64,000 nucleotides of DNA, from positions 10,194 through 74,193 of the forward strand of contig JAOZOU010000009.1 of the NCBI GenBank assembly GCA_029933125.1, read 5' to 3'. Below, in pieces: positions 5,335 to 28,476 of the stretch; position 1 is the first letter of the stretch, and each line of letters begins with the position of its first letter. This DNA comes from a bacterium (GTDB lineage Bacteria > Arandabacterota > Arandabacteria > Arandabacterales > Arandabacteraceae). A program made the position numbers and the translations under genes. The notes beneath the pieces are model-generated. The model ran no database searches and had not been told where the DNA came from. It saw nothing but the letters and a program-made list of their open reading frames with translations.

Positions 5335-5341
5335 TACTGAC

Positions 5342-7764: not shown

Positions 7765-7777
7765 AACGTCACCCCCG

Positions 7778-8656: not shown

Positions 8657-8826
8657 TTCTGTACTCCTCACGCCTTCGTAGTTGTCTAAAGGAGGGACTA
8701 CTGAGCCCCCACCCCGCATCCCACTCAATTGAGAATAAACCCAAAAAGGGGTGGTGTCAATCAATTCGATCGAGAGCCGCTTATTCTCAGGGCTGTAGCG
8801 TGTTTGGCTCCCTTGGAATCAGCTGG

Positions 8827-8855
8827 TTGACACAGAAGTTGAGTGCGGGGATAAT
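8827..8855 (+). promoter_or_regulatory. candidate sigma70-type promoter (TTGACA-17 nt-GATAAT) in divergent intergenic region
   Basis: TTGACA at 8827-8832, 17-nt spacer, GATAAT at 8850-8855, read directly; about 200 nt upstream of the aldo/keto reductase start. Confidence 0.25.
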
Positions 8856-9055
8856 GACTGTGGAACGCGAATTGTAGTACATCAGGCTCAGACCACTTTG
8901 CTATCCAGCGCTACCTCTTGCAATTGGATTGATATCTCGAGGTCGGTTGAGAGAAAAGCCTTGTAGAGCGACGAAATCTGACTTTCTTCTGTGGATTAAC
9001 GATCCAAGGTGTGGTTCAAGACCATCTTGCTTCTGAGAGTTTGAGGAGGGTAGCT

Positions 9056-10237: not shown

Positions 10238-10243
10238 GCCCTC

Positions 10244-10383
10244 GGGGTCGGAGCTAAAAATCGGCAAATCCCCCCAATTGGGGTCGGAGCTAAAAATCTG
10301 CATTCCAGCTTCTTTGGCACGGTCTGTGCAATTGCAAGTTAGGTGCCAGCCACGCCTTCGTGCACGTTTTTAGCTCCGACCCC
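10244..10383. repeat. repeat element locus 1: two direct copies of GGGGTCGGAGCTAAAAA core plus one inverted copy
   Basis: Core at 10244-10260 and 10280-10297 (direct), inverted copy 10365-10383; same core recurs at 43543-43732 and 53976-54066. Confidence 0.8.
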
Positions 10384-10410
10384 GGAGGCCGGGTGTGGTA
10401 TGATGGAGGT

Positions 10411-12111: not shown

Positions 12112-12121
12112 GCCAACTGCA

Positions 12122-15100
12122 TCAGCGCATAAGAACCACCTTAGCAGTCGCCGACTGCCTGCCAGATGAGATTCTTACAAAATAGATACCAGCCGAGACG
12201 GCTCTCTCATTCCTTGACATACCGCTCCAGACCAAGGAGTGCATACCAGGTGATAGATGCCCTGCCTCGCTCTCCCACACCAGCCTACCTGCAACGTCAT
12301 AAACAGAGACCCGTACATCACCAAAGGTCGGAATTGTAAAAGATATCTGGAAATTCTCGTGGCTCGGGTTGGGTACAATTTTGGCGATGCCAAAGGCGAG
12401 GTGCTGGCCCCCACCTTGAGAAACACCCGCTATGTCAACATCTCCCTCCCACCGCCGTGCATATATCTCAGGATTACCATCCCTCTCATCCCGCCACACA
12501 ACGGCTATCTTGCCTAAGGCATCGGCAGCCACAGAAGGCAAAGCACAAGAGCCGCTCTCGGATGACAGCCTCGCCTCCCTTGACCAAATCGAAGTGTACG
12601 ACTTGTAGTAGATTGCCTCAGCCTCGTCATAGGTGTCCTCCCAGACCAAATGAAAGCGGCCCCTTCCATCACCACAGATATTGGGCGTCGTGCCAGTACC
12701 AAAAATTTCACCCAGGTCAGTCCACGACCCGCCTTCGTAAAGCATCCCCCGTATGGATGTATCACTCCCATCTTGCTCCTCCCACACCACCATTACCCTG
12801 CCACCGTCGTCGCAGCCAACCGATGGACGCGTCGAGAGACCCGGAGTCGCTACCAGCCTAGTAGAACTGCTCCACACCGAACCATCCCAGACCTTGTAGT
12901 AAATCTCACTATTGCCATCACGTGTATCTTCCCAGACCACGTAGACATTGCCAAGGCTGTCAGCTGCCCCAGCCGGATAGCGTGACACTGCCCCATCGCT
13001 GGTGAGCCTTTCTTCAGTCCACCCTAAACCATCCCATCTAACGCAGTATATCTCCCAGTTGCCATCACGACTGTCCTGGAAGAATATGAATGGCTCATCA
13101 CCCGCACTCACTGCCAACGAAGGATAGTCTGACACACCACTATTGCTGGTCAGTCTTCGATTTGCCTCCCAGATTAAGCCATCATAGTGCTTATAGTATA
13201 TCTCCCAGTTGCCATCACGACTGTCCTTCCAGCACAAGTGGAGCTCGTCACCCACCCCACCACAAATTGAAGGGAGCTGGGATGAAGCCGCATCATAAGT
13301 CAGCCGCGTCTCCGGTAGCCAGCTCACTCCATTCCACTTGCGGTAGTAAATCTCATAATTGCCATCACGATTGTCATACCAGACAACATGCACGTGACCA
13401 CTTGCCTCCCTTACAACACACTTACTGTTGTTCCACGAAGTTGTCGATGAGTAAGTATCGAAGCTTACGCGCTCTTCTTCACCCCAAGGTGTGTCAATGA
13501 TGAGAATGGCGTCAGCGAGGAACGCCTCCTGCAGGTCAGAATCGGAATTCTTAAGCCAGACCTGCCAGTAGCCCGGCTCTGCCCCGCAGAGATCAAAATC
13601 ACATTTGATGTAAGAGTCCGAAAGCCTTGTCACATTCTGTGCAAAAATCGGTTCCTCACCCACCCGCTCGAGCCAGACTGAGGGATTGCCAGCAAAACCG
13701 GTCCCTGTTAGAACGGCATTTACAGGGAAGACGTTGCCAGCTTCCGTTGGGGAAAACCTCGCTATAGCTGCACGTGTCTCACTAGCTGACCAATGCTTAT
13801 AGTATATCTCACTGTTGCCGCCGCCTTGATCATGGCACCAGACGACGTGCACATTCCCGACCGCATCAGTATCCAGGCGACCGGCTTCATCGCGGGTCGA
13901 ATTATATGTCAACCGCTCATCCGGCCACCATCTCACGCCGTCGTACCGCTTGTAATATATCTCATAGTTACCATCACGGCCATCTTGCCACACCACATGC
14001 ACATTACCACTTCCATCAGTCGCTACTGACGGAGCCTCAGAACTGCCTGAAGCATTCGTCAGTCGCTCATCTGGCCCCCAACTCACACCGTCATACCGCT
14101 TGTAATAAATCTCATAGTTACCATCACGGCCATCTTGCCACACCACATGCACATTACCACTTCCATCAGTCGCTACTGATGGATGCCAGGAGTCGCCTGA
14201 AGCATCAGTCAAACGCTCATCTGCTCCCCAACTCACACCATCATAAATTTTATGGTATATCTCCCAGTTACCGTCACGATAATCTTGCCACACAACATGG
14301 ATGTTCCCACTAGTGTCCACGGTCACCTCAGGCATTCGAGATTCGCCTGAAGCAACAGTCAATCGCTCATCCGGCCCCCAACTTGCACCATCATAAACTT
14401 TGTGGTATATCTCCCAGTTACCATCACGGCTCTCTTCCCATACAACGTGCTGATTGCCATCGCTATCCACGGCAACCGCAGCCCACTCAGAATTGCCAGG
14501 ATCGTTCGTCAACCGCTCATCCGGCCCCCAACTTACACCATCATAAACTTTGTGGTATATCTCCCAGTTGCCGTCGCGATAATCCTTCCAGAAAACGTGT
14601 AAGTTTCCGCCGAGGTCTCTTAGTAGCCGTGGATGGAACGAGCTCCCCGAAGCATTAGTTAAGCGTTCATCTGGCCCCCAGGTCACGCCATCATAGCGCT
14701 TATAGTATATCTCTCCATTCCCATCTCGCTCATCCCACCACACAACATGGAGACAGACCCCATCGACGAGTACCCGAGGAGATTGGGAACTGTCATTAGC
14801 ATAGGTAAGCTGCTCTTCAGGTAGCCACTCCCCAGCTGGCATAACATAGAAACCGAAGGGGAGCGTGTCTGGCTGTCCATCTGGATTCTTGACAATAACA
14901 TCCCAGTAGCCAGGGGCAGCGTTCTCGAGATCTGCGGTACAGGTTAGCCTGTCAGAACTCTCAACGCGGATGTTATGACACACGATCCGGGGTTCACCAG
15001 GCTTTTCAAGCCAGACAGAATCAGGAAAGAAAAAGCCAGAACCCGATAGATTTGTGATGCGCACTAATTCATGGCTGTAGCCTTCATCGGGTTCAATCGA

Positions 15101-16279
15101 GTTAATCTGCGGCTTCTCAAGTGTGCCGTTATACCATTCCTTCCAGTATAGCTCCCAGCCGCCATCACGGTTGTCATACCACGCAACATGCACGTTCCCA
15201 CTTTCATCCGTCACTACTGATGGATACCAGGAGTCGCCCGAAGCAACAGTCAAACGCTCATCCGGTCCCCAACTCGCCCCATCATACCGCTTATAATAAA
15301 TCTCATAGTTACCATCACGATTGTCATACCACACCACATGCACGTTACCGCCGGTGTCCGTTCCTACAGAAGGGCTATATGAGTCTCCTGAGGCATTTGT
15401 CAACCGCTCATCTGGTCCCCAGCTCATACCATCATACCGCTTGTAGTATATCTCATAGTTGCCATCACGATTGTCATGCCACACAACATGCACATTACCA
15501 CTTCCATCAGTCGCCACTGATGGATACCGAGAGTAGCCCGAAGCAACTGTCAATCGCTCATCAGAACCCCAACTCATACCATCATACCGCTTGTAATAAA
15601 TCTCATAGTCGCCATCACGATTGTCATGCCACACAACATGCACATTACCACTTCCATCAGTCGCTACTGATGGATACCGAGAGTAGCCCGAAGCAACTGT
15701 CAATCGCTCATCAGAACCCCAACTCACACCATCATACCGCTTATAGTATATCTCTGAGTCGCCATCCCGATGATCCCACCACACCACATGTACATTCCCG
15801 CTCATATCGACTGCGACCGAGGGATCCTGGGAGAGCCCAGCTGAGTTCGTCAACCGCTCATCTGCCCCCCAACTAACACCGTCATATCGCTTATAGTAAA
15901 TCTCCCAGTCGCCATCACGATAGTCCTCCCACACGATATGAACATTACCACTTACGTCCGCAGCCATCCACGCACCCCTAGACTGTCCACCTGCATTCGT
16001 CAAGCGTTCAACAGGGCTCCAACCCGTCCCATCGTAACGCTTGTAGTAAATCTCATCGCTGCCATCGCGAGTGTCCTCCCACACCACATGCACGTTACCA
16101 AACAAGTCCGTGGTCACACACCTACCCATTTCAGCCGAAACCTGGGAAGTGGGTGGATCAGTCAGACGCCAGTCAAAGAACCAGCCAGCAGCTGCCCGAC
16201 TTGCAAAGCACAGACCCAGTGCTATCAAGATCGCAAAAGACCAACCGAACGCTTCGCTTGTGGGTCTATCACGACGCAT
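12122..16279 (-). CDS. giant secreted repeat protein (about 28 x ~50-aa propeller-like repeats, two Ig-like inserts) with T9SS/FlgD-like C-terminal sorting domain
   Basis: Signal peptide MRRDRPTSEAFGWSFAILIALGLCFASRAAAG; repeat unit GNVHVVWxDxRDGNxEIYYKRYDGxSWGxDERLT; C-terminal 85 aa match the T9SS CTD pattern (VPNPSHENFQISF...VYDVAGRLV...GIYFVRI). Start 16279 chosen for signal peptide and SD spacing. Confidence 0.8.
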   Translation of the reverse strand: MRRDRPTSEAFGWSFAILIALGLCFASRAAAGWFFDWRLTDPPTSQVSAEMGRCVTTDLFGNVHVVWEDTRDGSDEIYYKRYDGTGWSPVERLTNAGGQSRGAWMAADVSGNVHIVWEDYRDGDWEIYYKRYDGVSWGADERLTNSAGLSQDPSVAVDMSGNVHVVWWDHRDGDSEIYYKRYDGVSWGSDERLTVASGYSRYPSVATDGSGNVHVVWHDNRDGDYEIYYKRYDGMSWGSDERLTVASGYSRYPSVATDGSGNVHVVWHDNRDGNYEIYYKRYDGMSWGPDERLTNASGDSYSPSVGTDTGGNVHVVWYDNRDGNYEIYYKRYDGASWGPDERLTVASGDSWYPSVVTDESGNVHVAWYDNRDGGWELYWKEWYNGTLEKPQINSIEPDEGYSHELVRITNLSGSGFFFPDSVWLEKPGEPRIVCHNIRVESSDRLTCTADLENAAPGYWDVIVKNPDGQPDTLPFGFYVMPAGEWLPEEQLTYANDSSQSPRVLVDGVCLHVVWWDERDGNGEIYYKRYDGVTWGPDERLTNASGSSFHPRLLRDLGGNLHVFWKDYRDGNWEIYHKVYDGVSWGPDERLTNDPGNSEWAAVAVDSDGNQHVVWEESRDGNWEIYHKVYDGASWGPDERLTVASGESRMPEVTVDTSGNIHVVWQDYRDGNWEIYHKIYDGVSWGADERLTDASGDSWHPSVATDGSGNVHVVWQDGRDGNYEIYYKRYDGVSWGPDERLTNASGSSEAPSVATDGSGNVHVVWQDGRDGNYEIYYKRYDGVRWWPDERLTYNSTRDEAGRLDTDAVGNVHVVWCHDQGGGNSEIYYKHWSASETRAAIARFSPTEAGNVFPVNAVLTGTGFAGNPSVWLERVGEEPIFAQNVTRLSDSYIKCDFDLCGAEPGYWQVWLKNSDSDLQEAFLADAILIIDTPWGEEERVSFDTYSSTTSWNNSKCVVREASGHVHVVWYDNRDGNYEIYYRKWNGVSWLPETRLTYDAASSQLPSICGGVGDELHLCWKDSRDGNWEIYYKHYDGLIWEANRRLTSNSGVSDYPSLAVSAGDEPFIFFQDSRDGNWEIYCVRWDGLGWTEERLTSDGAVSRYPAGAADSLGNVYVVWEDTRDGNSEIYYKVWDGSVWSSSTRLVATPGLSTRPSVGCDDGGRVMVVWEEQDGSDTSIRGMLYEGGSWTDLGEIFGTGTTPNICGDGRGRFHLVWEDTYDEAEAIYYKSYTSIWSREARLSSESGSCALPSVAADALGKIAVVWRDERDGNPEIYARRWEGDVDIAGVSQGGGQHLAFGIAKIVPNPSHENFQISFTIPTFGDVRVSVYDVAGRLVWESEAGHLSPGMHSLVWSGMSRNERAVSAGIYFVRISSGRQSATAKVVLMR

Positions 16280-16690
16280 AGCCATTCCCCCTTTTGAAAG
16301 CCTTTGAAGCATTCTACTCAAAAACATAGCGGCCAACCCGCAGCCACGAACAAAAACCCGGAGAGACGCTCACAATGTCACAGCAGCCCAGCCTGCGCCA
16401 ACATTGGAACCAATTAGCCATTATAGCACACAAGATGCGCTATTTCAACACCTTCTCGTACTTTTGCGGGGAATGGGTGGGGAGAACCCGCTTTCGATGA
16501 AACTGTTTTACATCCTCCACTTCGTTTGATAAAATGGGCGGCCGGCAAGAGAATCTTAACCAAAGGCTGCTGATTGTTCTGCGGGTCTGTCCGAGAGTGC
16601 AGGAAGGGCTAGGGATAGCAGCTACCCAAATCCCTTCCTCACGGTTGATGGGAAATATCGCTTCTGCCTTTCAATTGGGGGTGATTTTCC

Positions 16691-19153
16691 ATGGCGCGCC
16701 TTGACTGTCCCCGGTTGGTGCTGCCACTTGCGGTTCTTATTTTCACATTGGTGTCCCCTCCAACGCCTGTGCTGGGTGATTGGCTCTTTAGCACGAGACA
16801 GGATTTTGCGGTGGGTAGCAGACCTTCACAAGCTGCCCTCCATGACTTCAATAATGATTTCATACTCGACGCTGTCGTCGCCAACAGTGAGAGTGACAAC
16901 GTATCCATCCTCATTGGAAGAGGTGATGGGACATTTACCAGAGCGGAGGACGTAGACGTGGGGGATTACCCTGCCTCCATTTTGGCAACCGATGTTGACC
17001 TTGATCAGGATTGCGACCTTGTCGTAGCCAACACGTGGAGTAATACCATCTCGGTCCTCCTTGGTCATGGCGACGGAACATTCACCCCATCAGCGGAGAT
17101 TCTTGTTGGTGGAGGACCTTGTTTCGTCATCGGTGGCGACTTTAACTGCGACTGGATCCCTGACTTTGCTGTTGCCAACATGTACAGTGATGATATCTCC
17201 GTCGTGTTAGGCAATGGGGATGGAACATTTGATGCCCCGATACGCTTTCCTGTTGGCGGGTACCCGAACTCAATGGTTTCGGGCATGCTGAATGCAGACG
17301 GGTTTTCCGACATCGCTGTAACATGCTATTACGACAACAAAGTCTCAATCCTCTTCGGAAACGGTGATGGCACATTCACAAAGGCAGCCGACCATCCTGT
17401 TGACCACCCAAACGAAGTCTCAACTGGAGACTTTGATTCGGACGGCGATCTTGATCTTGTAGTGGTCAGAGTGTCTTCGACAAACCAATCGGTCCTCGTC
17501 TTCCTAAATGACGGCAATGGAACATTTCAGCCACCGGTTGCATATGAGGCTTACAACTACGGGATCTCAGTTGCTGTATCAGATGTTAATCTTGACGGAC
17601 ATCAGGACTTGGCAGTCGGTGATTTCAACGAGTCATTCTACATTCTCCTGGGAAACGGGGATGGCACTTTCCAGTCGTCGATTTACCACGATGCTGGGAA
17701 CTCCGTCGTCTGCATCCGAGTGGGAGACCTGGACAGAGACGGGCTACCGGATATCCTCGCTGTCAATAGGTATGAGGATACGGTCTCAAGCATCATAGGA
17801 AACGGAGACGGCACGTTCAAAGTCGCACCGTGGTACATGTGTGATTCCGGACTCTGCTCCGTGGCACTAGGCTATCTCAACGCCGATTCATTTCTCGACA
17901 TCGTTACTGGTAATGCTGACGCCCGCAATGTTTCAGTGCTCATTGCAAACGGTGATGCCACCTTTATGCCTGCTGTCAGCTACTTGATTGGGCTCGGTCT
18001 GAGCTGGGTAGTCATCGACGATTTTGGCGGCGACGCAGTTATGGATCTGGCTGTCTCCAGTGATATGCGCTATGTCGCTGTACTTATGGGAAACGGTGAT
18101 GGCACCTTCCAGGATCCAGTGACCTACTGGGTAAAGGGAGGTGCTGCGCATCTCGCCTCCGGCGATGTGGATGGCGACGGCGATGCAGATCTAGCTGTCG
18201 CAATCAAAGACAGTGGCGAGGTAGCGCTCCTACTTAACAACGGTGATGGCACCTTCGCTCCGGCAGTTGGCTACGCGGCTGATGGTGGCACCAATTGTGT
18301 CTGCCTCGATGACTTTGATTGTGACGGTGATCTAGATATCGCTACGGCCAATTGCTATGGGGATAATGTCTCTATCCTGCTGGGCAATGGGGACGGGACC
18401 TTCGCTGCAGCCGTGAACTACCCTGCATCCTTTGGTCCTTGCAGCGTGGTCTCAAACTATCTCGATGGAGATTCTCTTCCAGACCTTGCGGTCGTAAACG
18501 AATATAGCGACAATGTCTCAATACTACTCGGCAACGGTGACGGGACGTTTGACCTGGCCCGAAACTACCCTGTAGCCAACTCTCCTCTCTCACTTGCTAC
18601 AGGAGACTTCAATCGTGACTGCGTACCAGATCTTCTGGTCGTGCATCAGTTCCACTACTTTGTCTCTGTCCTTCTCGGAAACAGAGACGGTACTCTCAGG
18701 GAGCCAGTACTGTATGGCGCTCATATTTTCCCGCGGGCTGCAGCAGTCGGTGACCTAAACGCCGATGGGTCGGATGATGCTGTTGTTGCCAATCAGGGCT
18801 GCCTCAGCGTTTCGGTCCTTCTGGGGGAAATTTGCGCTGGTGTACCTATCGATGGAGACAGGAAACAAGCAGACTCAATTTGCCAGCTGAGGGTCGCGCC
18901 AAATCCATGCACTGGCAGTGCCGCGATTTGGTTCGACATTCCGTCAGAGCAATCTCTAAGAAGTGTCGCTGTCTATGATGTTTCAGGTGCTCTGGTCCGG
19001 CAATGGGTGTTGGAAGCGACGATAAGTAATGGAAACTGTGTTATCTGGGACTGCAGAGACAATTACGGAAGGCGTGTCGCACCGGGCGTTTACTTCGCAA
19101 GTATCCAAAGCGAAGGCGTGTTGGCCACACGCAAGCTCATAGTACTTCGCTAG
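16691..19153 (+). CDS. FG-GAP/VCBS repeat protein with T9SS/FlgD-like C-terminal sorting domain
   Basis: 820 aa; signal peptide; about 13 repeats with D-x-N-x-D-G-x-x-D and GNGDGTF motifs; C-terminal APNPCTGSAAIWFDIP...VYDVSGALV...GVYFASI sorting domain. Confidence 0.8.
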   Translation: MARLDCPRLVLPLAVLIFTLVSPPTPVLGDWLFSTRQDFAVGSRPSQAALHDFNNDFILDAVVANSESDNVSILIGRGDGTFTRAEDVDVGDYPASILATDVDLDQDCDLVVANTWSNTISVLLGHGDGTFTPSAEILVGGGPCFVIGGDFNCDWIPDFAVANMYSDDISVVLGNGDGTFDAPIRFPVGGYPNSMVSGMLNADGFSDIAVTCYYDNKVSILFGNGDGTFTKAADHPVDHPNEVSTGDFDSDGDLDLVVVRVSSTNQSVLVFLNDGNGTFQPPVAYEAYNYGISVAVSDVNLDGHQDLAVGDFNESFYILLGNGDGTFQSSIYHDAGNSVVCIRVGDLDRDGLPDILAVNRYEDTVSSIIGNGDGTFKVAPWYMCDSGLCSVALGYLNADSFLDIVTGNADARNVSVLIANGDATFMPAVSYLIGLGLSWVVIDDFGGDAVMDLAVSSDMRYVAVLMGNGDGTFQDPVTYWVKGGAAHLASGDVDGDGDADLAVAIKDSGEVALLLNNGDGTFAPAVGYAADGGTNCVCLDDFDCDGDLDIATANCYGDNVSILLGNGDGTFAAAVNYPASFGPCSVVSNYLDGDSLPDLAVVNEYSDNVSILLGNGDGTFDLARNYPVANSPLSLATGDFNRDCVPDLLVVHQFHYFVSVLLGNRDGTLREPVLYGAHIFPRAAAVGDLNADGSDDAVVANQGCLSVSVLLGEICAGVPIDGDRKQADSICQLRVAPNPCTGSAAIWFDIPSEQSLRSVAVYDVSGALVRQWVLEATISNGNCVIWDCRDNYGRRVAPGVYFASIQSEGVLATRKLIVLR

Positions 19154-19404: not shown

Positions 19405-20646
19405 CTAGTCCGCCGGGTTCACGAGGCGCCCCATGAAGAGGATGGTGCCGGTTGTGTTCTCCTTTATAAGGAAAATGAAAGGATGATCGGCTCGAAATGT
19501 CTTGGCTGGCGTAGGTGCCATCGCGAGCGCCATGGTAACCCCTGTTGCCGCAGCTGCCTCTGTCCCACGCTCATTCACATCGACATATGCTTTGTGCACA
19601 ACAGCTGAGATGAAAAGATCACGCTTGCCTGTCATACCTGAGAAATCCGCTCTTGTTGGCTCGAATGCATCCTTCATGCCAAGTTCTTCAAGAGCTCCAT
19701 CAACCCGAAACTTAGTCTCGAGCTTAAAACGCGGAAGGCTTATGTCCACCCGCTCAGGCGCAAGACGCCCAAGCCAGGCGGAAAGGGAATCAGGGGCAAG
19801 CCCCGCCTCGAGCCCTTTGAGCCCCTCAACCTTCCTTGGAAGCAGAATCACCATTGAAAGATCTCCACCCTTGTAGGGGAGCTCAAGTGCCTGAAAGTCA
19901 TCTCTCTCAAAATAGTGAAAGTGTCCTTCCTGATGCATCATGGGAATGGTGACCGTCGTTGTGTCATCTACATGGAAGGGCTCATCCGAGGTGCGCTTCT
20001 CCTTGAAAGGATGCTCCCAGTTGCCCAGAAAATAGATGGCGTTGGTAAGCACAAGCCTTACGTCGGGGGTAAGAAGCCCCCTGCCTATGAGCTCCTGTAT
20101 CTTGCCCTCAGTCTTCTCAGACACCCACTCATTTATGCGCTCCCTTGCACCAGCGGCATCATTGGCAAAATCAACCTGAAAAAGGCCTGCCCCATAGTAT
20201 TTTTTGGTTAAACCTATGAACTCAGCCTCAAACTCATAGCCCTCCTGTGCCCAAAGTGCATTCGCCACACTGAGCTTGAAGTTGCCTTTCCTACCAAGGG
20301 CATTGAGTGAATCTGTAAGCTCCCCAAATGCCTTGTGGATACCCTCACCACCTACCCCACCAAGCCCACCAAAATGCAATGCCCGAGCCATCTCCTCAGC
20401 AGTCTTACCCCGCGCTCCTGCATATGTCATCGCAAGCGCACTTGAGATGCTGTATGGGGAAAAGAATAGATTTCCTTCCCCAAGTTGCTGGTAAAGATCA
20501 AGCGCAAAAGCATTGTTTCTTGCCGCAAGTGTGTCCATCGTAACCTCTTGTGTTGGCTTTGCCTGGTCGCTTCCACAGCTAGATGCTCCCATCAGCGACA
20601 TTCCGATAAGCATTACCGCTATGAATCGCCAATCTCGCAGTCCCAT
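19405..20646 (-). CDS. serpin (serine protease inhibitor) with signal peptide
   Basis: Serpin hinge and reactive-centre-loop signature GTEAAAATGVTMALAMAP...HPFIFLI...ILFMGRLVNP plus N-terminal FSPYSISSALAMTYAGARG; ATG 20646 preceded by AGGAGG; track start 20790 likely too long. Confidence 0.85.
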   Translation of the reverse strand: MGLRDWRFIAVMLIGMSLMGASSCGSDQAKPTQEVTMDTLAARNNAFALDLYQQLGEGNLFFSPYSISSALAMTYAGARGKTAEEMARALHFGGLGGVGGEGIHKAFGELTDSLNALGRKGNFKLSVANALWAQEGYEFEAEFIGLTKKYYGAGLFQVDFANDAAGARERINEWVSEKTEGKIQELIGRGLLTPDVRLVLTNAIYFLGNWEHPFKEKRTSDEPFHVDDTTTVTIPMMHQEGHFHYFERDDFQALELPYKGGDLSMVILLPRKVEGLKGLEAGLAPDSLSAWLGRLAPERVDISLPRFKLETKFRVDGALEELGMKDAFEPTRADFSGMTGKRDLFISAVVHKAYVDVNERGTEAAAATGVTMALAMAPTPAKTFRADHPFIFLIKENTTGTILFMGRLVNPAD

Positions 20647-20865
20647 CCTTCTCCTCCTTCCTATGTACCCAACCCCCATATTATGATAACCACTCTCCAA
20701 GGTCAAAACCAAACCTTCGGGGGAGATTCCCTCGAAGACCACATACCAGACGCGTGAAATGCATCGCTCGAGGGTATGCTGAGATCTCATGTGTGGTTCC
20801 TTCAGCCCAGATGGAACCTTCTACGCCAATTTGAGAATTTTAGAGTGGAGAGAAGGAGGGTGAGA

Positions 20866-22065
20866 ATGAAACACAAGAATCCTGATCGCTATACCAAAAT
20901 TGCATTCTGCCTGACAGTCACTCTTGTTGCAGGGCTCGTCGGGGCTTTGAGTTTTCTCGGTGACCATGCTGTCGCCTATGCACTTGAGAATTCGAAAGCC
21001 TCATTTGGTACCAGCTACACTACTACCTGCCTTTTTGAAGGCTTCGAAGATGGTTGCCGCCTCAACCCCCCAATCACCACTGCCCGAGATATCAATCTCC
21101 TTGGCACATCCCATAGTCACATTCGTTCACACGAGCTGGTTGGGTTGGTGTCTTCCTCTTCATATGCGGCAGGCTCAGAAGGCTTTGTCCCCCAGCTGGA
21201 ATCGGGTTCCACCGCTTCCTCTGCTGCTCAACTAAGGCTAGCCTCTGCCGAACAATCCTCAATTTCGCCTGCGAATCTGCGTGCCGCCAAAGCCACCTAC
21301 ATCGTGTGGCCAACTCACCTGGATTTTGGGACCATAAGCACTTACAGCTACGCCGATAGGACATTCATGATAAAGAACAAGGGATCGACGAAACTCAGCG
21401 GTACAGTTCAGGCATCGCTACCATTTGTGGTTATAGAAGATAATCACTTCGATCTGGATCCAGGGCAGTGGAAGCATTTCACAATCAGGTTTCTCCCTAT
21501 CCTGCCTGGGAGTTCCACCTGCATGGTGACGCTTGGAGATAGCGTAGATACTAAAGTAATCTGCACCGGCAAGGGGAAACCTCGACCGTTCTCTGGCATA
21601 CTCTACCTCGAGTTCTTAGCATCCCTTCTCGCTGCTCACGATGGGGCTCTTATCTTCTCCAGTAATGCTTTTGTGCAGGCTGATTCTTGCAAAATAGAGG
21701 AAAGGCTTGCCAGATACGCAAAGGCTTGCGACGCCGCCAAGTGGATCTATGACGCCAGATCCATGTATAGAGATGATCATCATACACCGACTACTCCCAC
21801 ATGGCACAGCGACTTCCCAACATGGCACAACGACTTCCCAACATGGGGTGGACATTCAACCCATCAGAGTGGCTCAAATACCTCTCACATCAGCATTGGA
21901 GAGATGAACTGGACACATCATGTGCCCTCAGCGATAGTTGCGCCACTCCCTGTCGCAACCCCACCTTCCTGGCATGCCACGATACCAACCGCTGGTATTT
22001 CCTCCTCGATGTCCCATACATCGGATAGACGTCACCATATATCGCACCCACGTGTCCACCACTAG
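20866..22065 (+). CDS. secreted protein with Ig-like (ASH / choice-of-anchor-D-like) domain and His/Trp-rich C-terminal tail
   Basis: Signal anchor MKHKNPDRYTKIAFCLTVTLVAGLVGALSFLG; central motif YIVWPTHLDFGTISTYSYADRTFMIKNKGSTKLSG; C-terminal low-complexity tail with about 15 His and repeated TWH/PTWH. ATG 20866 preceded by AGGAGGG. Confidence 0.45.
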   Translation: MKHKNPDRYTKIAFCLTVTLVAGLVGALSFLGDHAVAYALENSKASFGTSYTTTCLFEGFEDGCRLNPPITTARDINLLGTSHSHIRSHELVGLVSSSSYAAGSEGFVPQLESGSTASSAAQLRLASAEQSSISPANLRAAKATYIVWPTHLDFGTISTYSYADRTFMIKNKGSTKLSGTVQASLPFVVIEDNHFDLDPGQWKHFTIRFLPILPGSSTCMVTLGDSVDTKVICTGKGKPRPFSGILYLEFLASLLAAHDGALIFSSNAFVQADSCKIEERLARYAKACDAAKWIYDARSMYRDDHHTPTTPTWHSDFPTWHNDFPTWGGHSTHQSGSNTSHISIGEMNWTHHVPSAIVAPLPVATPPSWHATIPTAGISSSMSHTSDRRHHISHPRVHH

Positions 22066-22154: not shown

Positions 22155-23360
22155 ATGAGGAAAAGATCGCTTCTTTCGACAATTCTCTTGATCACGATAG
22201 GTGGCTCTGGGCTATTGTTAGCCCCCCTTGCCCGAGCTGCCGCTGGCTGGACTCCTGCAATCCGGCTGACTAATAGCGATGGCTCCCTAACGCTTTCGGG
22301 TCCCCCCGGACTTAAGCAGATAGCTGCAGGCCCTGACGGGAGGATACATGTAGTTTGGGCTGATAACCGAGATGGGATGTATCACATCTATTACAAGTGC
22401 TTTGATGGAAAAGCTTGGAGCAAAGACGAATGCATAAGCCAGGGCTATGGCTTAGACCCCAGTATCTCGCTCCTTCCTCACGGTCGGATACTGGTAGCGT
22501 GGTACTGGTTCGGCTACGACACCTTTGCTCGGATCTTCGACGGGTCAAGATGGCAGAACGAGACCAAGCTCAGCGATTGCACACCGATCAATAGCACCTG
22601 GCCTTCTACGGTGACCGACGCTGCAGGACGTGCCCACGCATTCTGGCCAGTCTCAAGCTTCTGTGAGGCGTTCCTAATGCATCGTGTCTATGATGGCCAA
22701 AGGTGGCTTCCCTGTGACACGATACCAGGCACCACAGGTAACCCCATGCTGACGGCTGCTGCGTGTGATAGCAAGGGAAATCTTCATCTCGTGTGGACGG
22801 ATGGAAGAGATGGCAACTTTGAAATCTACTACACGACGTATGATGGCTCGCGGTGGGGTGCTTTTCAAAGACTCACGAGTGACCCAGCAGCATCAGAGCT
22901 TCCGGATGTTGCAATCTCCTCAAAGGATGTCATCTATGTGGTTTGGCAGGACTCTCGTACAGGAGTCCCTGAGGTCTATCTTAAGACATTCAACGGCAAA
23001 TGGTCTCCTGATCAGAGACTTTCAGCAGACGACGGCAGACTATCGGGCAATCCCAAGATAGCTATAGATTCAATGGACAGGGTACACATCGTTTGGGGAG
23101 AGCAAAGGCATGAGAAGATCAAGTTCCATGACATCTATTACCGCAGGTCGCGTCCCAGGGGTAAGCTATGGTCGCCCCCTGTAAGACTGACAAGTGATGC
23201 AGCAATCCCGAAATACTACTCCCTCTGTGTTGACTCTGCTGGTAACGCCTATGTGGTTTGGATGGATTTCCGCAATTTCAGGTGGGATATCTATTTCAAA
23301 ACTCAGTGTAAATCCAACGACCCTGCCTTCTGGACAAGGGGGCTCACCCAGGCCAATTAA
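22155..23360 (+). CDS. secreted propeller-repeat protein, paralogous to the repeats of the 12122-16279 protein, no sorting domain
   Basis: 401 aa; signal peptide; repeats RIHVVWADNRDGMYHIYYKCFDGKAWS, LHLVWTDGRDGNFEIYYTTYDGSRWG, IYVVWQDSRTGVPEVYLKTFNGKWS share the giant protein's repeat motif. Confidence 0.7.
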   Translation: MRKRSLLSTILLITIGGSGLLLAPLARAAAGWTPAIRLTNSDGSLTLSGPPGLKQIAAGPDGRIHVVWADNRDGMYHIYYKCFDGKAWSKDECISQGYGLDPSISLLPHGRILVAWYWFGYDTFARIFDGSRWQNETKLSDCTPINSTWPSTVTDAAGRAHAFWPVSSFCEAFLMHRVYDGQRWLPCDTIPGTTGNPMLTAAACDSKGNLHLVWTDGRDGNFEIYYTTYDGSRWGAFQRLTSDPAASELPDVAISSKDVIYVVWQDSRTGVPEVYLKTFNGKWSPDQRLSADDGRLSGNPKIAIDSMDRVHIVWGEQRHEKIKFHDIYYRRSRPRGKLWSPPVRLTSDAAIPKYYSLCVDSAGNAYVVWMDFRNFRWDIYFKTQCKSNDPAFWTRGLTQAN

Positions 23361-23387: not shown

Positions 23388-26300
23388 CTACCTCCAGTCA
23401 CCAGAGGAAACAAAAGCAGCCCATCGTACCGGATGATCTATCATTCCATGCGAGCGCAGTTCTTTGAGCACTTTGAGCTCAACCGCGTTAAGGGTGAATG
23501 CAATATTCTCTGGGGGCGTGCTGTAGATGGCACTACAAACTTCGGCAGCAAGTCTGTCAGACACTGGCCACATTGCACCGATTATTGTGCGCGCCCCAGC
23601 CAGCCGAAAGGCACGCACGGGGCCATAAACGCCTTCGGCATCTTCAAGCTCGCCAGTTGCGGTTTCGCACCCCGAAAGCACCACGAGATCGGTTCCTCTG
23701 AGATCAAGGGCAAGGATCTCCTCAGAGGTAAGTGTGCCATCATCAATCATTGGGTTCTCAAAGCCTCTACCATGGAGATTTGCTCGAGCCAGAAAAAGCC
23801 CTGATAAGACCAGGGGATTGAGACTATCAGGGTTGATACTTACCCTATCTGCTGAAGGGTAGATCTTCCCCGGCGAGCAAGATGCCAGGTGATAACCATG
23901 GGTTGCAAGGTGAAGCACGCGCTTCCCAGGAGCATCAGCTTTTACCCTTTCCTCAGTTGCGTCTTTGCCGACATAGATATACGCGGGCTCACCTGTGACC
24001 TCGCGCCACCTATGAGCTACAGCTTCTACCTCACGGCGGCTCTCAGGGAGAGGTGGAACAACAATGTTGAACCGTTCCTTGCAGGGAATCGATGTCTGAC
24101 CATGCTCAAGTAAGTCAAGCTCAGGCTTGAGGGCACCCCTCTCAGGTAAGGCATCGTAGTCGGGGGCACCAATTGCCAGAAGCCCCTTACCCCGCTTAGG
24201 ATTTTTCCCAAGCGCAAGGAGGTCGCGAGCAGCTGCGATGTAGTGTACGGGATAATGTTCGATAAGATACTTGCCATCACCTGCTATCAAGCCTGCAAAG
24301 GAAATGCGCGAAATCTCAGCATCAGAGCAAATGATCACAAGATCCGAACCCTCGAGGTGACCTTCAATCGGCTCAACAAGGATCTCATAGAGCCTTCTTC
24401 CAAGCCTTGTGTAGTATTCCATATCCTCAAGTGTGGGACCTGACCTGGAATCAGCTAACTTCCTCATGTGGTGGCAATAAAGGCGGACAGCAAAGTCGAT
24501 GTCAGCAGCATCGCCCAGCTGTACAATACGCACCTCGGAATCACTGGTTAGCACGAGCGCAAGGTATCTGAAAAAGTAGCCGTTAGGCTCAACCCAGTAC
24601 TGATACTTGAAATACTCAACAACTGTAGTTCTCATAGGAAATCTTCTCAGGGCACTGAGCACCTTGGCTACACTGGTGTCAAGTACCTGCGCTGCGTCGG
24701 CATGATCAGCTATCAAACTGGCAAGTCTTCGCTCAAGGCGCTCCTTTCGCTTTCTGAGATTTTTGAGCATTGTCTCTAAGTCTTTGCTGCTGGGGATCTC
24801 AGAAGTGTAGAGCACCGAGATTTGCTGGTGAATGAGGCTAAGGGAATCCACAACCGCAGTTGCATAATCTGTCGTTCCACGTAAGGCGTGTCTTTGAGCA
24901 AGGAGATCAGTGACACCGCCTTTGGACTGCAATACGGCATCTGCAACCTCGAGCGTGGCATGCTCTTCCCTTTCGGGGAGATCGAAGTAAGTAGTAAGTA
25001 GCCTATCCACACAGGCGAGCTGAACCTCTCGATACTTAAGAGCCTCTCTTTCCGGCATTAGCAGAATCTGATCCGCTACGGTTTGCCATCCGAGCTCGAG
25101 TGTCTCCAGGGCAGCGTCCCAGGCCGCCCGGACGTCACCTCTCATCCTATGAAATCTGCTGAGATCCAGGAGATTCATGGTTGCATCTGGACCAAGCGAA
25201 CCGAGTGCTTTCTGCATAGCAATTGCCTTCTCATACATTGGCATTGCTTCACCATAGCGCCGCTCATCTCGATAGCAATTTGCGAGGGTCATCAAAATGG
25301 AAACAATTGCCGGGCTCGCCGTCTCAGCCTCCGTCTCGCAGGAAGCTATTGCTGAAGCACACAGGCTTTCAGCCCTGCTATAGTCATGGATGTAGCGGTA
25401 GACAGTTGCAAGGGCTGCGATTGCCCGTAGGAGAGCGGGATGCTGAGGACTAAAGGGCTTATTTAAAATTGCAATAGCACGTTCCAGGTTGTCTATAGCC
25501 ATTCTAATGTACTTTGTGTGGTTATTGCTACGCAGCTCGTAGTTCAGGGATCCGAGCTCGGCAAGTACCATACCAATGCCTGGATGATTCGGTCCAAGAC
25601 CTACCTCACCTCTCCCGAGAGCATCCTTGAGCACAACATGTGCCTGATCAAACCGCTGGGATGCAACGAGCACTCTTGCAAAACCGAGCATTGCCTCAAG
25701 ACGGTGGGTATTCATAGCAGGTGACGTGCGATCAAAAATGGCAAGAGCCTCTTCATAAAGCCTTTCAGCCTCGACAAGGTTGGCTTGACAATATCTGAGG
25801 CGTGCCATATTGGTGATTGTTGAGGCAACGAAAGGGTGCCAGTAACCAAGGCTGATGCCGAGCAATCTTCTGGCCTCAAGCAAGTGGTATTCTGCCGAAA
25901 GATAATCCAGTTTGTAAGTATCTATCAACCCTTGCAGGTTCAGGGTATGCGCTAATGTAACACTGTCGGCCCTGTCCGATATCTCAAGAAGGAAGCGTGA
26001 CTCATCAAGCCAATCTTGAGCCCTGGTATAGTAACCCTGGGCAACCGCGAGATGAGCAAGAGCGAGATCGATGTGTGCTTCCCAGCAAGGGTCGGGGTAG
26101 TTCTGAGAAAGATAGCGAGCCTGAGATAGATAGCCTTGCGCTTCAGCATAGTGTCCCAGCTCAGTTCCTATCTCACCAAGGTAGGTAAGAAGTGGCAGGG
26201 CCTGCTCGCGCAATTCCGAAGGGGGAGTTCGGGTGATTAATCGCTCCAGCTTCCCGTACAGGCTTGAAAGTTCTTCGTGACCACCATACTGGAGATAGAA

Positions 26301-26594
26301 CGCAGCCAAGACTGCAATCTGTGAAGGGAGGGATTGAAATTCCCTTCCCTCACCAATCGACCTCAATGTCCTTGCTAGCTTGGCCTGGGCATCACGGTAA
26401 CTTTCATACTTTAAGAGTCGAGTCGATCCGCATTGGGAATCTACAACAACAATCGGCAGGTAGCCCCCACCAACACTTGACGGAGACCCTCCAGCAAGCC
26501 TAATTAACCCAAGAGTGCACACTGCTGCGAGGAGGACCTGATTGACTTTCGATGAATCCATTCCTCCCTGCCTTTGCTTTTCGAGAAAACGCAT
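23388..26594 (-). CDS. TPR-repeat protein with C-terminal CHAT (caspase-like) peptidase domain, predicted secreted
   Basis: CHAT catalytic dyad context VLHLATHGYH (His) and LVVLSGCETATGE (Cys) at C-terminus; multiple TPR-like helical repeats centrally; signal-peptide-like MRFLEKQRQGGMDSSKVNQVLLAAVCTLGL. The first 140-150 aa of the track ORF would overlap the divergent sigma-factor region and are rejected; alternative start ATG 26561. Confidence 0.75.
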   Translation of the reverse strand: MRFLEKQRQGGMDSSKVNQVLLAAVCTLGLIRLAGGSPSSVGGGYLPIVVVDSQCGSTRLLKYESYRDAQAKLARTLRSIGEGREFQSLPSQIAVLAAFYLQYGGHEELSSLYGKLERLITRTPPSELREQALPLLTYLGEIGTELGHYAEAQGYLSQARYLSQNYPDPCWEAHIDLALAHLAVAQGYYTRAQDWLDESRFLLEISDRADSVTLAHTLNLQGLIDTYKLDYLSAEYHLLEARRLLGISLGYWHPFVASTITNMARLRYCQANLVEAERLYEEALAIFDRTSPAMNTHRLEAMLGFARVLVASQRFDQAHVVLKDALGRGEVGLGPNHPGIGMVLAELGSLNYELRSNNHTKYIRMAIDNLERAIAILNKPFSPQHPALLRAIAALATVYRYIHDYSRAESLCASAIASCETEAETASPAIVSILMTLANCYRDERRYGEAMPMYEKAIAMQKALGSLGPDATMNLLDLSRFHRMRGDVRAAWDAALETLELGWQTVADQILLMPEREALKYREVQLACVDRLLTTYFDLPEREEHATLEVADAVLQSKGGVTDLLAQRHALRGTTDYATAVVDSLSLIHQQISVLYTSEIPSSKDLETMLKNLRKRKERLERRLASLIADHADAAQVLDTSVAKVLSALRRFPMRTTVVEYFKYQYWVEPNGYFFRYLALVLTSDSEVRIVQLGDAADIDFAVRLYCHHMRKLADSRSGPTLEDMEYYTRLGRRLYEILVEPIEGHLEGSDLVIICSDAEISRISFAGLIAGDGKYLIEHYPVHYIAAARDLLALGKNPKRGKGLLAIGAPDYDALPERGALKPELDLLEHGQTSIPCKERFNIVVPPLPESRREVEAVAHRWREVTGEPAYIYVGKDATEERVKADAPGKRVLHLATHGYHLASCSPGKIYPSADRVSINPDSLNPLVLSGLFLARANLHGRGFENPMIDDGTLTSEEILALDLRGTDLVVLSGCETATGELEDAEGVYGPVRAFRLAGARTIIGAMWPVSDRLAAEVCSAIYSTPPENIAFTLNAVELKVLKELRSHGMIDHPVRWAAFVSSGDWR

Positions 26595-26834
26595 ACCATG
26601 CACTATTTGGGATGTCAAGCCTGCCAACTCGGATGTGCCCGTCCCAACGCCATAAACAATATTGCACTCCATGCGATTAAGCTTGAAGATATGGCGTTCG
26701 TGAGGTAACATTTGCAGTAGCACACGGTTCCTGCTCGGATCTGCTACGAAAGAGAGCTGGCGGAGGGCAGACTCATCGACTTCTCGCTCGAAGATAAGGA
26801 CACCCGGGAAACCGTCAGGCAATGGATTCAGCCT

Positions 26835-27317
26835 GTGGTAAGAAGTCCAAGGTGGTATCAGCGCATCAAGCACGAAGAGCAGGATATTTACAATGAAGTT
26901 ATGTTGAGATTCCTGATTGCATGTCAGAAAGGCCGCGTCGATACTGCAAGAGATCCCAGGCCTTATGTTCAGAAAATTGCCTTTCACGTCTGCGTTGACT
27001 GGATCAGGCGTAACCATCGAGAGGTCCCTTTCGACGACATCACCGAAGAGATTAGCAGGAAGCTTTTCAGGCGTGAGCCCAGTATTCTCGAAAAGCTCAC
27101 ACGTGATGAAACGGTTGAGGTTCTAGTGGAGCTGATTGGAACCTTGCCTGAGAAATGCCGAAATATATTACGGATGACATTTTATGAAGAAAAATCAGAG
27201 AAGGCGATTGCAGATGCTCTTGGTGTACCCGTTGGAACCGTAAAATCTAGAAAGTCGAGATGCCTCGACAAGCTCAGGCATCTCTTGAAAGGAAAAGACA
27301 ATCAAGCTATGGATTAG
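26835..27317 (+). CDS. ECF-type RNA polymerase sigma factor (sigma-24 family), N-terminally short
   Basis: Region 2 (EQDIYNEVMLRFL...IAFHVCVDWIRRN) and region 4 (AIADALGVPVGTVKSRKSRCLDKLR) motifs; first canonical start is GTG 26835 after in-frame stop at 26718. Confidence 0.75.
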   Translation: MVRSPRWYQRIKHEEQDIYNEVMLRFLIACQKGRVDTARDPRPYVQKIAFHVCVDWIRRNHREVPFDDITEEISRKLFRREPSILEKLTRDETVEVLVELIGTLPEKCRNILRMTFYEEKSEKAIADALGVPVGTVKSRKSRCLDKLRHLLKGKDNQAMD

Positions 27318-27393: not shown

Positions 27394-28476
27394 GTGTATG
27401 CGCAGGGTAGCAGGCATGTAGCAGATTTACTTGACGATTACATCAATAGAAAACTCAATGATTCTCAATCCAAAGTGGTCGAGGCCCATGTAGCTACCTG
27501 TAAGGCCTGTGCCGTTGAGCTTGCCTTCAGGCTGGCAGTAGCCAAAGCCACGAAAAGGTACTATGCGAGGCAATCTCTCGACCACGTGGATACCGCCATT
27601 CTGGCAGATCTTGCCCTGGGAGGGCATAATCTCAGCCCCGAATCGAAGAACAAAGCTCTCGAGCATATCGCCTCATGCCCCCAGTGCCGGAAACACTATG
27701 AGACAGCAAAGGGTGTTGCCGATGATCTTAATCTGGAGCCGATCCCGTCTCCCAGTGAGTCCCATCCCGGGCCTGACCTTGCGAAGGAATCTGAGATGCG
27801 GCGTGGCCTCATGGTAAGAAACTTCTTTTTGTTTCTATTCGGAAGATGGCGTTATGCTGCCGTAGCCTTTGCCGCTGCTTTCTTAACCTTTGCAATCATC
27901 GAACTAAGCAAGCCATCGTATCCTCCAGGGATAACATCCAGCCCTTCCCTTGGGGAAGGCTCCTCACAGCCCTTTGCAACATCACAGGTCCGAGGAGTAA
28001 AGTCCCCGCCTGAGAAGGCTCTCTCTGAGACAGGTGCGGCTACTTCTCCTACCTCAACGATCGGAGCCACCTTGCCCCCAAGAGTGCTATACTTTGATGC
28101 GGGAACAAAGGTGGGACCCGACGAAGAACTTGACTTAGCCAGACTGGAGGTAACAGCTCGGGTGGTTACACTCGCAAGGCAAGAGAATCTGCTTCTTATA
28201 ATCGAACGCCCACGAGAGCTTGTAGGCAAGACCATCGGCTGTGTTCAGATCTACAAAGTCGAAGGCTCGGCAGCCATCTTAGAAACTGAGTGGAGTAAGT
28301 TTGCGATTCCAAGGGAAGGGAAAATCCCCCTGATGATACCCTCAGAAATTCTTCAACCCGGCACTTACGCAATCTCAGTCCAGCCTACCGAACCAGACCA
28401 GACTGCAACCTTCTTCCCTGTCAAGGTGAACCTGGAGTCGGCATATTCTTCCGAACAGAAGGAATCCTCAAAGTAA
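27394..28476 (+). CDS. anti-sigma factor, zf-HC2 type, single-pass membrane protein
   Basis: N-terminal H-x3-C-x2-C motif (EAHVATCKAC) plus second Cys pair (CPQCRKH); one TM helix (AVAFAAAFLTFAIIEL); periplasmic C-terminal domain; GTG start 76 bp downstream of the ECF sigma gene. Confidence 0.6.
   Translation: MYAQGSRHVADLLDDYINRKLNDSQSKVVEAHVATCKACAVELAFRLAVAKATKRYYARQSLDHVDTAILADLALGGHNLSPESKNKALEHIASCPQCRKHYETAKGVADDLNLEPIPSPSESHPGPDLAKESEMRRGLMVRNFFLFLFGRWRYAAVAFAAAFLTFAIIELSKPSYPPGITSSPSLGEGSSQPFATSQVRGVKSPPEKALSETGAATSPTSTIGATLPPRVLYFDAGTKVGPDEELDLARLEVTARVVTLARQENLLLIIERPRELVGKTIGCVQIYKVEGSAAILETEWSKFAIPREGKIPLMIPSEILQPGTYAISVQPTEPDQTATFFPVKVNLESAYSSEQKESSK

Follow-up and report, generated by a model that had tools for sequence, protein, structure and literature searches.

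The closest described counterpart of the locus treated here is the DdvS/DdvA pair of Myxococcus xanthus. DdvS is a sigma factor of the extracytoplasmic function (ECF) class, and DdvA is one polypeptide carrying a cytoplasmic zinc anti-sigma domain, a transmembrane (TM) helix, a flexible linker and, in the periplasm, a tetratricopeptide-repeat (TPR) region joined to a caspase-fold CHAT domain, together termed TPR-CHAT (PMC11506125). DdvA that lacks its TPR-CHAT part becomes a substrate of RseP, which TPR-CHAT sterically blocks, and signal-induced self-cleavage of the linker by CHAT was proposed by the authors as the site-1 step (PMC11506125). The fused form was reported only in the Myxococcota and in one Comamonas, and only a subset of the DdvA-like pairs is found near defence systems (PMC11506125). 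In the 64,000-nucleotide stretch of DNA from a bacterium of the phylum Arandabacterota that we analysed (the window; all positions are counted within it), the corresponding parts are encoded by three neighbouring genes, those of an ECF sigma factor, a single-pass zf-HC2 anti-sigma factor and a TPR-CHAT protease with an export-type N-terminus. By analogy, this arrangement looks like a split version of DdvA/DdvS, which would work like it and departs from it in the single-polypeptide feature. Functional coupling of the exported TPR-CHAT protein with the ECF sigma/anti-sigma pair is well supported by conserved linkage and by a conserved catalytic dyad.

Two other associations of CHAT proteins with ECF sigma factors have been documented. 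In type III-E Craspase, which comprises Cas7-11 (gRAMP), the TPR-CHAT protein Csx29, Csx30/Csx31 and RpoE, the protease controls the ECF sigma factor via Csx30 (PMC10028731). For the actinobacterial group ECF54, the review sentence devoted to it places carboxypeptidase, subtilase and CHAT-domain proteins in the gene neighbourhood and proposes proteolytic control, the group being described there without an anti-sigma factor (PMC8999054). Full-text searches combining CHAT with ECF or anti-sigma retrieved DdvA/DdvS, Craspase (Csx29-Csx30-RpoE), a SAVED-CHAT cascade and this one sentence on ECF54. The main text of the ECF re-classification paper makes no mention of CHAT; its supplements lay outside this search, and notes on individual groups in the database are possible. 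Apparently, the unfused triad of sigma factor, anti-sigma factor and exported TPR-CHAT protein is undescribed so far.

The features of the locus are the following (aa, amino acids; nt, nucleotides).

23388..26561, minus strand: gene of the TPR-CHAT protease, with the proposed ATG at 26559-26561, the stop codon at 23388-23390 and a product of 1057 aa.

26490..26561, minus strand: N-terminal hydrophobic segment MDSSKVNQVLLAAVCTLGLIRLAG, read directly from the sequence, with a helix predicted at residues 3-23 in the AlphaFold2 (AF2) model.

25200..26195, minus strand: TPR array by Pfam models; helical repeats in the AF2 model extend from ~26399 to 24642.

23397..24407, minus strand: CHAT (caspase-fold) domain, whose catalytic His is encoded at 23898-23900 (HLATHG) and catalytic Cys at 23667-23669 (VLSGCET).

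26562..26756, both strands: divergent intergenic and promoter region, ~195 bp with the revised starts.

26757..27317, plus strand: ECF sigma factor gene, from Pfam r2/r4, TIGR02937, BLASTP to the protein P0048 and alignment with CHAT-linked sigma factors.

27394..28476, plus strand: gene of the single-pass zf-HC2 anti-sigma factor, 360 aa, starting 76 nt after the sigma stop codon.

aa 1 to ~140 of the anti-sigma factor, plus strand: predicted cytoplasmic anti-sigma domain, with HxxxCxxC at nt 27487-27510 and 27664-27687.

27853-27909 (aa 154-172), plus strand: TM helix, the sole hydrophobic helix by hydropathy.

27910-28473, plus strand: linker rich in Ser/Pro/Thr/Gly/Ala and C-terminal immunoglobulin (Ig)-like domain, from composition and Ig-like repeat matches.

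An earlier note on this DNA had described a CHAT gene with a His in ATHG, a Cys in LSGCET, a central TPR array and a signal peptide; all of these are borne out by Pfam matches or by the sequence itself, the last as an export-type N-terminus. In the 1209-aa stop-to-stop open reading frame (ORF) 23388-27017 of the minus strand, CHAT (PF12770) covers residues 871-1207 with E 5.7e-51 and a domain score of 174.1 bits against a gathering score of 24, and three TPR_12 matches together with other TPR models cover residues 275-606. The catalytic His and Cys are both invariant in an alignment of 10 sequences (the window protein and nine relatives); across 31 sequences the His is invariant and the Cys is at least 90% conserved. 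The dyad, whose loss on alignment was to count against the proposal, is retained, and endopeptidase activity is predicted from the domain and the conserved dyad.

The AF2 model, calculated from the 31-sequence alignment (pLDDT, the predicted local distance difference test, 82.9; pTM, the predicted template modelling score, 0.80), consists of an N-terminal helix, a long helical-repeat solenoid, a beta-hairpin insertion and an alpha/beta CHAT domain, in this order. A Foldseek search of the PDB with this model found human separase, Csx29 (8eey_B, E 6e-13) and DdvA (8rot_A, E 4e-12), with E values between 1e-11 and 1e-13 and identities of 11-16%. Searches of the PDB by sequence, either with the protein or with the family profile, gave only TPR proteins such as kinesin light chain; the relationship to DdvA, Csx29 and separase emerged only from the structural comparison. 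Taken together, the CHAT score above threshold, the dyad, the TPR superhelix and the modelled fold place the window protein in the separase/Csx29/DdvA class of TPR-CHAT proteins.

The assignment of export depends on where the protein starts. The frame is open to 27017, yet relatives lack its first 152 codons, a stretch that overlaps the sigma gene; they begin with a short signal-peptide-like segment that is directly followed by the TPRs, and nothing in them matches the first ~90-150 residues of the window ORF. Because of this alignment and of the sequence GGGAGGA just upstream, ATG 26561 (MDSSKVNQVLLAAVCTLGLIRLAGG...) is chosen as the likely start, and it would give the protein an export-type N-terminus. 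The start MRFLEK at 26594, taken in the earlier note, and TTG 26822, used in the deposited gene call P0001 (1144 aa), are both less likely. With the revised starts, the divergent pair described earlier stands and its spacing shrinks from ~240 bp to ~195 bp. The segment MDSSKVNQVLLAAVCTLGLIRLAG is a probable Sec signal peptide or signal anchor, and a signal-peptide-like N-terminus is also seen on alignment in most of the close relatives P0002-P0010.

Both P0001 and the 1209-aa ORF run over the coding region of the sigma N-terminus (26562-27017, minus strand), and this extension is probably an over-extended annotation. The alternative that ORF residues 1-152 form a long cytoplasmic N-terminal extension similar to that of DdvA was rejected, as the segment overlaps the conserved sigma N-terminus on the opposite strand and has no counterpart in relatives, and as its internal ATGs lack ribosome-binding sequences.

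The reported divergent ECF sigma gene followed by a zf-HC2 membrane anti-sigma gene was borne out by Pfam, TIGR02937 and hydropathy. The sigma protein contains only the Sigma70_r2 and Sigma70_r4 domains (Pfam), has a length of 160-186 aa depending on its start and scores 75.8 bits against the NCBIfam model TIGR02937 (sigma70-ECF), whose cutoff is 42.9. Its annotated start is GTG 26835. The BLASTP alignment to the unrelated ECF protein P0048 begins at nt 26766, 23 codons upstream of this GTG; the region-2 Pfam match grows from profile positions 18-70 to 3-70 once the upstream codons are included, and the N-termini of the CHAT-linked sigma factors also align upstream of it. Downstream of the in-frame stop at 26718-20, the frame contains no ATG, GTG or TTG before 26835, only CTG 26757 and ATC 26739. 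Either a rare start is used, or the protein is made in a truncated form, or the start codon is mutated, or the assembly contains an error.

For the anti-sigma factor, zf-HC2 (PF13490) was matched with 43.1 bits against a cutoff of 22.2 and E 4.4e-11 (Pfam). NCBIfam anti-sigma models matched as well, RsiW weakly, and the linker consists to 62% of Ser, Pro, Thr, Gly and Ala. From its domain plan and position, the protein is predicted to bind and inhibit the cognate sigma factor. Two HxxxCxxC motifs, HVATCKAC and HIASCPQC, lie ~60 residues apart; the Pfam match spans the first, and the second, which is RsiW-like, is the one conserved in the CHAT-linked anti-sigma factors. A word-indexed homologue search with the window anti-sigma found only itself and no relatives, and the sole matches of its ectodomain in an exhaustive search were Ig-like repeats of giant proteins.

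Conserved linkage of the CHAT gene with the sigma/anti-sigma pair in related genomes had been set beforehand as the test of the proposal, and the linkage is conserved in both directions of search. The forward sample consisted of 80 loci from species-representative genomes, with CHAT relatives of 24-34% identity, and three loci obtained by exact look-up; the six-frame ORFs of these 83 loci were searched with an iterated ECF profile seeded on the window sigma. An ECF sigma gene was found anywhere in the flank in 31/83 loci and within 3 kb of the CHAT ORF in 25. Per available sequence, the zone of 0-3 kb is 5.8 times richer in ECF genes (25 in 437 kb) than that of 3-10 kb (7 in 705 kb; binomial p 5e-6, and Poisson 9e-12 when the far-flank rate is taken as the expectation). 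The far-flank background amounts to ~1 ECF gene per 100 kb. The sigma-linked loci belong to at least 5 phyla, namely Acidobacteriota, Ignavibacteriota, Bacteroidota, Gemmatimonadota and Eisenbacteria. In the gene maps a triad recurs that is made up of the sigma gene, usually an adjacent gene for a single-pass membrane protein of 220-360 aa, several of which show marginal zf-HC2 matches, and the CHAT gene. It occurs in these layouts (loci by our own L numbers).

Co-directional operon sigma-anti-sigma-CHAT: L010, L037, L038, L046, L050, L058, L073.

Divergent, as in the window: L006, L007, L008.

Convergent: L001, L062, L064, L066.

CHAT gene first: L004, L036, L060.

Fifth variant, in which the sigma factor is paired with a membrane Ser/Thr kinase and a C11 peptidase precedes CHAT: L003, L016, L026, L029, L035.

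Among the six closest CHAT relatives, four (L004, L006, L007, L008; Ignavibacteria/Bacteroidota) hold the sigma pair within ~1.1 kb, and three of these four, L006, L007 and L008, share the divergent arrangement of the window. In the operons, the gap between the anti-sigma and CHAT genes ranges from a 4-nt overlap to 89 nt. Adjacency that is kept while the gene order is rearranged is a classic signature of functional coupling.

In the reverse test, metagenomes were scanned with a seed alignment of five anti-sigma factors of the Acidobacteria type, and loci with enough flank were counted. The sigma gene lay directly upstream of the anti-sigma gene in 48/55 loci, and a CHAT ORF on the same strand started less than 400 nt downstream in 18/25, with a CHAT ORF elsewhere in the locus in 3 more. 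The association of CHAT and sigma genes holds from both directions and in two collections and is not a coincidence; it joins, across phyla, three genes with these domains, a conserved dyad and export-type N-termini. The same reverse test from the window sigma gave only generic ECF matches with ~30% identity, two of them with usable contigs and no CHAT neighbour; it is uninformative, since the matches are no closer than generic ECF similarity.

The kinase variant, seen in Acidobacteriota/Vicinamibacterales, has an ECF sigma gene followed by that of a membrane Ser/Thr kinase with a DUF4384 ectodomain, and an operon that encodes a C11 (clostripain-like) peptidase and TPR-CHAT, transcribed away from this pair; in L026 the four genes lie at 4765-6525, 6522-7208, 7383-8771 and 8789-12238. 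In the cyanobacterial locus L002, a C14 caspase with DUF4384 stands beside TPR and CHAT genes, with no sigma gene. A relationship between the ectodomain family of the CHAT-linked anti-sigma factors and DUF4384 of the kinase variant was rejected (hhalign probability 0.1). In L082, from a Flavobacterium metagenome-assembled genome (MAG), two genes lie between the sigma and TPR-CHAT genes (7093-9463, plus strand), one of which encodes an M48-peptidase-like domain fused to TPRs; this means that a second protease is present in the same cluster.

The window belongs to the triad as defined here, since its ECF sigma gene lies no more than 3 kb from TPR-CHAT and has a single-pass anti-sigma gene beside it; its layout is that of L006, L007 and L008. 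Its anti-sigma factor is built on the same overall plan as the linked ones and has their second HxxxCxxC motif.

Compared with DdvS/DdvA, the window has in common the ECF sigma factor, the zinc-finger anti-sigma domain, the single TM helix with a flexible linker after it, and a TPR-CHAT protein with a His/Cys dyad that would likewise be placed on the extracytoplasmic side; the fold match is to 8rot_A (PDB 8ROT). The difference is that the anti-sigma factor (360 aa, Ig-like ectodomain) and the TPR-CHAT protein (1057 aa, own export signal) are products of separate divergent genes, that no island of CBASS (cyclic-oligonucleotide-based antiphage signalling) or CRISPR (clustered regularly interspaced short palindromic repeats) and no PADLOC match is found in the window, and that identity to DdvA is ~15%. 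PF13490 was found in none of the sampled CHAT relatives of the window protein. Whereas the fused form belongs to the Myxococcota and Comamonas, the split triad is found in Acidobacteriota, Ignavibacteriota, Bacteroidota, Gemmatimonadota and Eisenbacteria.

Craspase shares with the window a TPR-CHAT protease tied to the control of an ECF-type sigma factor and the fold, as seen in the match of Csx29 (8eey_B); it is cytoplasmic, RNA-guided and CRISPR-associated, in contrast to the window, where the CHAT protein has an export signal and no CRISPR array, Cas7-11 or Csx30/31 is present. ECF54 likewise has a CHAT-domain protein in a conserved ECF neighbourhood with proposed proteolytic control, whereas the window has a zf-HC2 anti-sigma factor and comes from other taxa. 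The window is a member of neither the Craspase nor the ECF54 arrangement. The earlier note was right that no gasdermin-like or CRISPR partner is present in the window (Pfam, PADLOC, CRISPR-array search). Its further statement that known CHAT architectures do not apply holds for defence partners and fails for CHAT/ECF architectures, since DdvA/DdvS and Craspase are known ones.

Canonical regulated intramembrane proteolysis, as in sigmaW/RsiW (PrsW, RasP) and sigmaE/RseA (DegS, RseP), resembles the window in the SigW/RpoE-type ECF sigma factor, in the single-pass zf-HC2 anti-sigma factor, which is weakly RsiW-like here, and in a dedicated extracytoplasmic protease as site-1 enzyme, a role we propose for the window protein. 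In contrast to these systems, the window would use neither a serine protease nor a metalloprotease for site 1: its candidate enzyme is a cysteine protease of the caspase fold, equipped with a TPR sensor, whose gene shares the locus with those of the sigma and anti-sigma factors.

From these comparisons we tentatively favour, as plausible though far from assured, a mechanism in which the exported TPR-CHAT protein senses a signal and, as the site-1 protease, cleaves the extracytoplasmic part of the anti-sigma factor, thereby releasing the sigma factor. At rest, the zf-HC2 domain would hold the sigma factor at the inner face of the membrane, while the exported TPR-CHAT protein would share the periplasm with the Ser/Pro-rich linker and the Ig-like C-terminal domain. 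A signal, probably a protein ligand on the TPR superhelix, would activate the His/Cys dyad, and the linker or domain of the anti-sigma factor would be cut. This site-1 cut would license RseP-type intramembrane proteolysis and cytoplasmic proteolysis, by which the sigma factor would be freed. The signal-peptide-like starts of the CHAT relatives imply that the protease should reach the compartment of the anti-sigma ectodomain, and the DdvA fusion, as a Rosetta-stone precedent, argues that the anti-sigma factor and TPR-CHAT work together on the outer side of the membrane. On this basis we infer the periplasmic location, the physical interaction, the anti-sigma factor as the substrate and the downstream proteolytic steps. 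The idea of the earlier note that the CHAT protease belongs to the sigma circuit is well supported with regard to coupling; the protease may be an input to the sigma factor or one of its targets.

Several observations weigh against this mechanism or against its application to the window. A hidden Markov model (HMM) of the ectodomain family of the CHAT-linked anti-sigma factors, built without the window, recovers L013, L068 and L066; the window anti-sigma scores weakly with 9.1 bits, E 0.14 (5544 ORFs) and a conditional E of 7e-5, the match falling at the expected position (aa 289-335). Its ectodomain is a near-orphan. The window sigma scores 47 bits against unrelated ECF sigma factors and 32.5 bits against the CHAT-linked ones. 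With such weak similarity of both sigma and anti-sigma, it is by its CHAT protein and its gene layout that the window is assigned to one co-evolving clade. A Mantel test of sigma vs CHAT similarity gave r 0.47 with p 2e-4, which is not counted as co-evolution because species phylogeny alone could produce it. About 70% of the sampled CHAT relatives, including cyanobacterial, planctomycete and myxococcal ones, have no sigma gene nearby. As the sigma gene of the window lacks a canonical start codon, expression of the module may be weak in this genome, or the module may be in decay. No phenotype was seen for dyad mutants of DdvA in the conditions tried, which did not include its inducing signal, itself still unidentified (PMC11506125).

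The alternative that survives best, though we hold it to be rather unlikely, is that the CHAT protease is an output of the circuit. The sigma factor would drive CHAT transcription, through the operon or, in the window, through a divergent promoter, and the protease would find its substrates elsewhere in the envelope or outside the cell, with roles such as remodelling, competition or programmed cell death. ECF operons as a rule regulate their own expression, so that a CHAT gene in third place of a sigma/anti-sigma/CHAT operon, as in at least 7 loci and in the 18/25 metagenome loci, would be induced together with the sigma factor. RseB is co-transcribed with rpoE-rseA, and such co-transcription is also compatible with a regulatory role. 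Conserved ECF neighbours may be regulators and/or targets (PMC7826278), which we count in favour of an output, as we do the secreted or surface proteins and the serpin clustered beside the window CHAT gene. On the other side, no ECF-type promoter was detected upstream of the CHAT gene, and the DdvA fusion puts TPR-CHAT in the sensory part of the anti-sigma factor, not in the regulon.

The search for an ECF-type promoter upstream of the CHAT gene, suggested in the earlier note, identified none. Sites from a sigma-70-type scan of the spacer were no more numerous than in shuffled sequence, the four divergent loci had no bipartite motif in common when compared, and ECF-like AAC...CGT patterns are absent from the spacer. 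These searches do not discriminate between the site-1 mechanism and its rivals. The motif GCTTGA-N17-GGTA occurs on both strands of the spacer, toward CHAT at ~26603-26632 (minus) and toward sigma at ~26680-26712 (plus), a pair for which the chance expectation is ~0.15-0.6 and which is not significant. Candidate divergent promoters are TTGACA-17-(TGg)TATGCG toward CHAT and TTGAAG-17-TAACAT toward sigma.

It is improbable to a greater degree that TPR-CHAT is an accessory modulator, either an RseB-like protector or co-sensor that binds the ectodomain via its TPRs, or a protease that processes some other protein or signal molecule. The large TPR superhelix offers a scaffold for protein binding, TPR-CHAT of DdvA sterically blocks RseP, and the kinase and C11 variant (L003, L016, L026, L029, L035) means that the partner of CHAT need not be a zf-HC2 anti-sigma factor; these points are opposed by the conservation of the His/Cys dyad throughout the family, which argues for selection on catalysis. 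Least probable of all is a relic or coincidental adjacency in which the sigma gene has lost its start codon, the module is non-functional and CHAT acts alone: it would accommodate the lack of ATG, GTG or TTG upstream of the conserved sigma N-terminal region, the near-orphan status of the sigma and anti-sigma factors and the lack of a sigma neighbour in most of the sampled CHAT relatives, but the sigma frame is otherwise intact with both domains above the family cutoffs, translation could begin at CTG or ATC, which are rare but permitted starts, or at GTG 26835 to give a truncated product, chance is unlikely to have placed a sigma gene within a few hundred bp of CHAT at a background of ~1 ECF gene per 100 kb, and the divergent layout recurs in L006, L007 and L008.

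Beyond the window, one may suppose, with considerable doubt, that exported TPR-CHAT proteins are widespread and unrecognised periplasmic sensor and site-1 proteases for ECF anti-sigma factors in Acidobacteriota and in phyla of the FCB (Fibrobacteres-Chlorobi-Bacteroidetes) group, with the DdvA fusion as one derived form and, in some lineages, with co-encoded serpins that restrain them. If this is true, caspase-fold proteolysis would be a general trigger of transmembrane signalling in bacteria, beyond CRISPR-linked or cell-death pathways. To our knowledge, it is unknown how most ECF anti-sigma factors sense their signals. A caspase-fold enzyme would join the short list of site-1 protease types, and the split three-gene version, common in soil Acidobacteria and in bacteria of the FCB group, would broaden the paradigm to many phyla. 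As protease and substrate are different genes in it, the parts are genetically separable and the site-1 hypothesis is directly testable.

The surroundings of the three genes contain chromosomal housekeeping genes (DnaB, CoaBC, IspG, MobB, SecD) and genes of secreted or surface proteins. No CRISPR array and no PADLOC defence match was found in the window, and Pfam scans of the surrounding ORFs gave no gasdermin-like or cas gene, Cas7-11 and Csx30/31 included. The large ORFs of the window encode a histidine kinase, a beta-propeller protein of the type IX secretion system (T9SS), a TPR protein and a 1106-aa product; the last (47671-50991) has no Pfam match and lies more than 20 kb from the CHAT gene. 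The T9SS sorting domain of a protein encoded nearby suggests an organism of the FCB group.

A serpin gene (19405-20790, minus strand; Pfam E 6.5e-130), a type of gene seldom found in bacteria, is located 2.6 kb past the 3′ end of CHAT. In L071, a Planctomycetaceae MAG, a serpin gene (7894-9522, plus strand; E 4.6e-100) overlaps the start of the TPR-CHAT ORF (9494-13222, plus strand) by 29 nt, so that the two form an operon in that MAG. Of 84 CHAT loci, these two have a serpin gene no more than 3 kb away. The serpin might inhibit the exported caspase-like protease.

The genes of exported proteins form a cluster beside the CHAT gene, which comprises 12122-16336, an FG-GAP protein (16691-19153), a choice-of-anchor-D-like protein (20776-22065) and a BNR-like protein (22155-23360). 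The first of these (minus strand) encodes a secreted beta-propeller/BNR protein of 1404 aa with a T9SS C-terminal sorting domain, and long near-exact DNA repeats with a 150-bp offset are found inside the gene, e.g., at 13045/13195 and 13959/14109.

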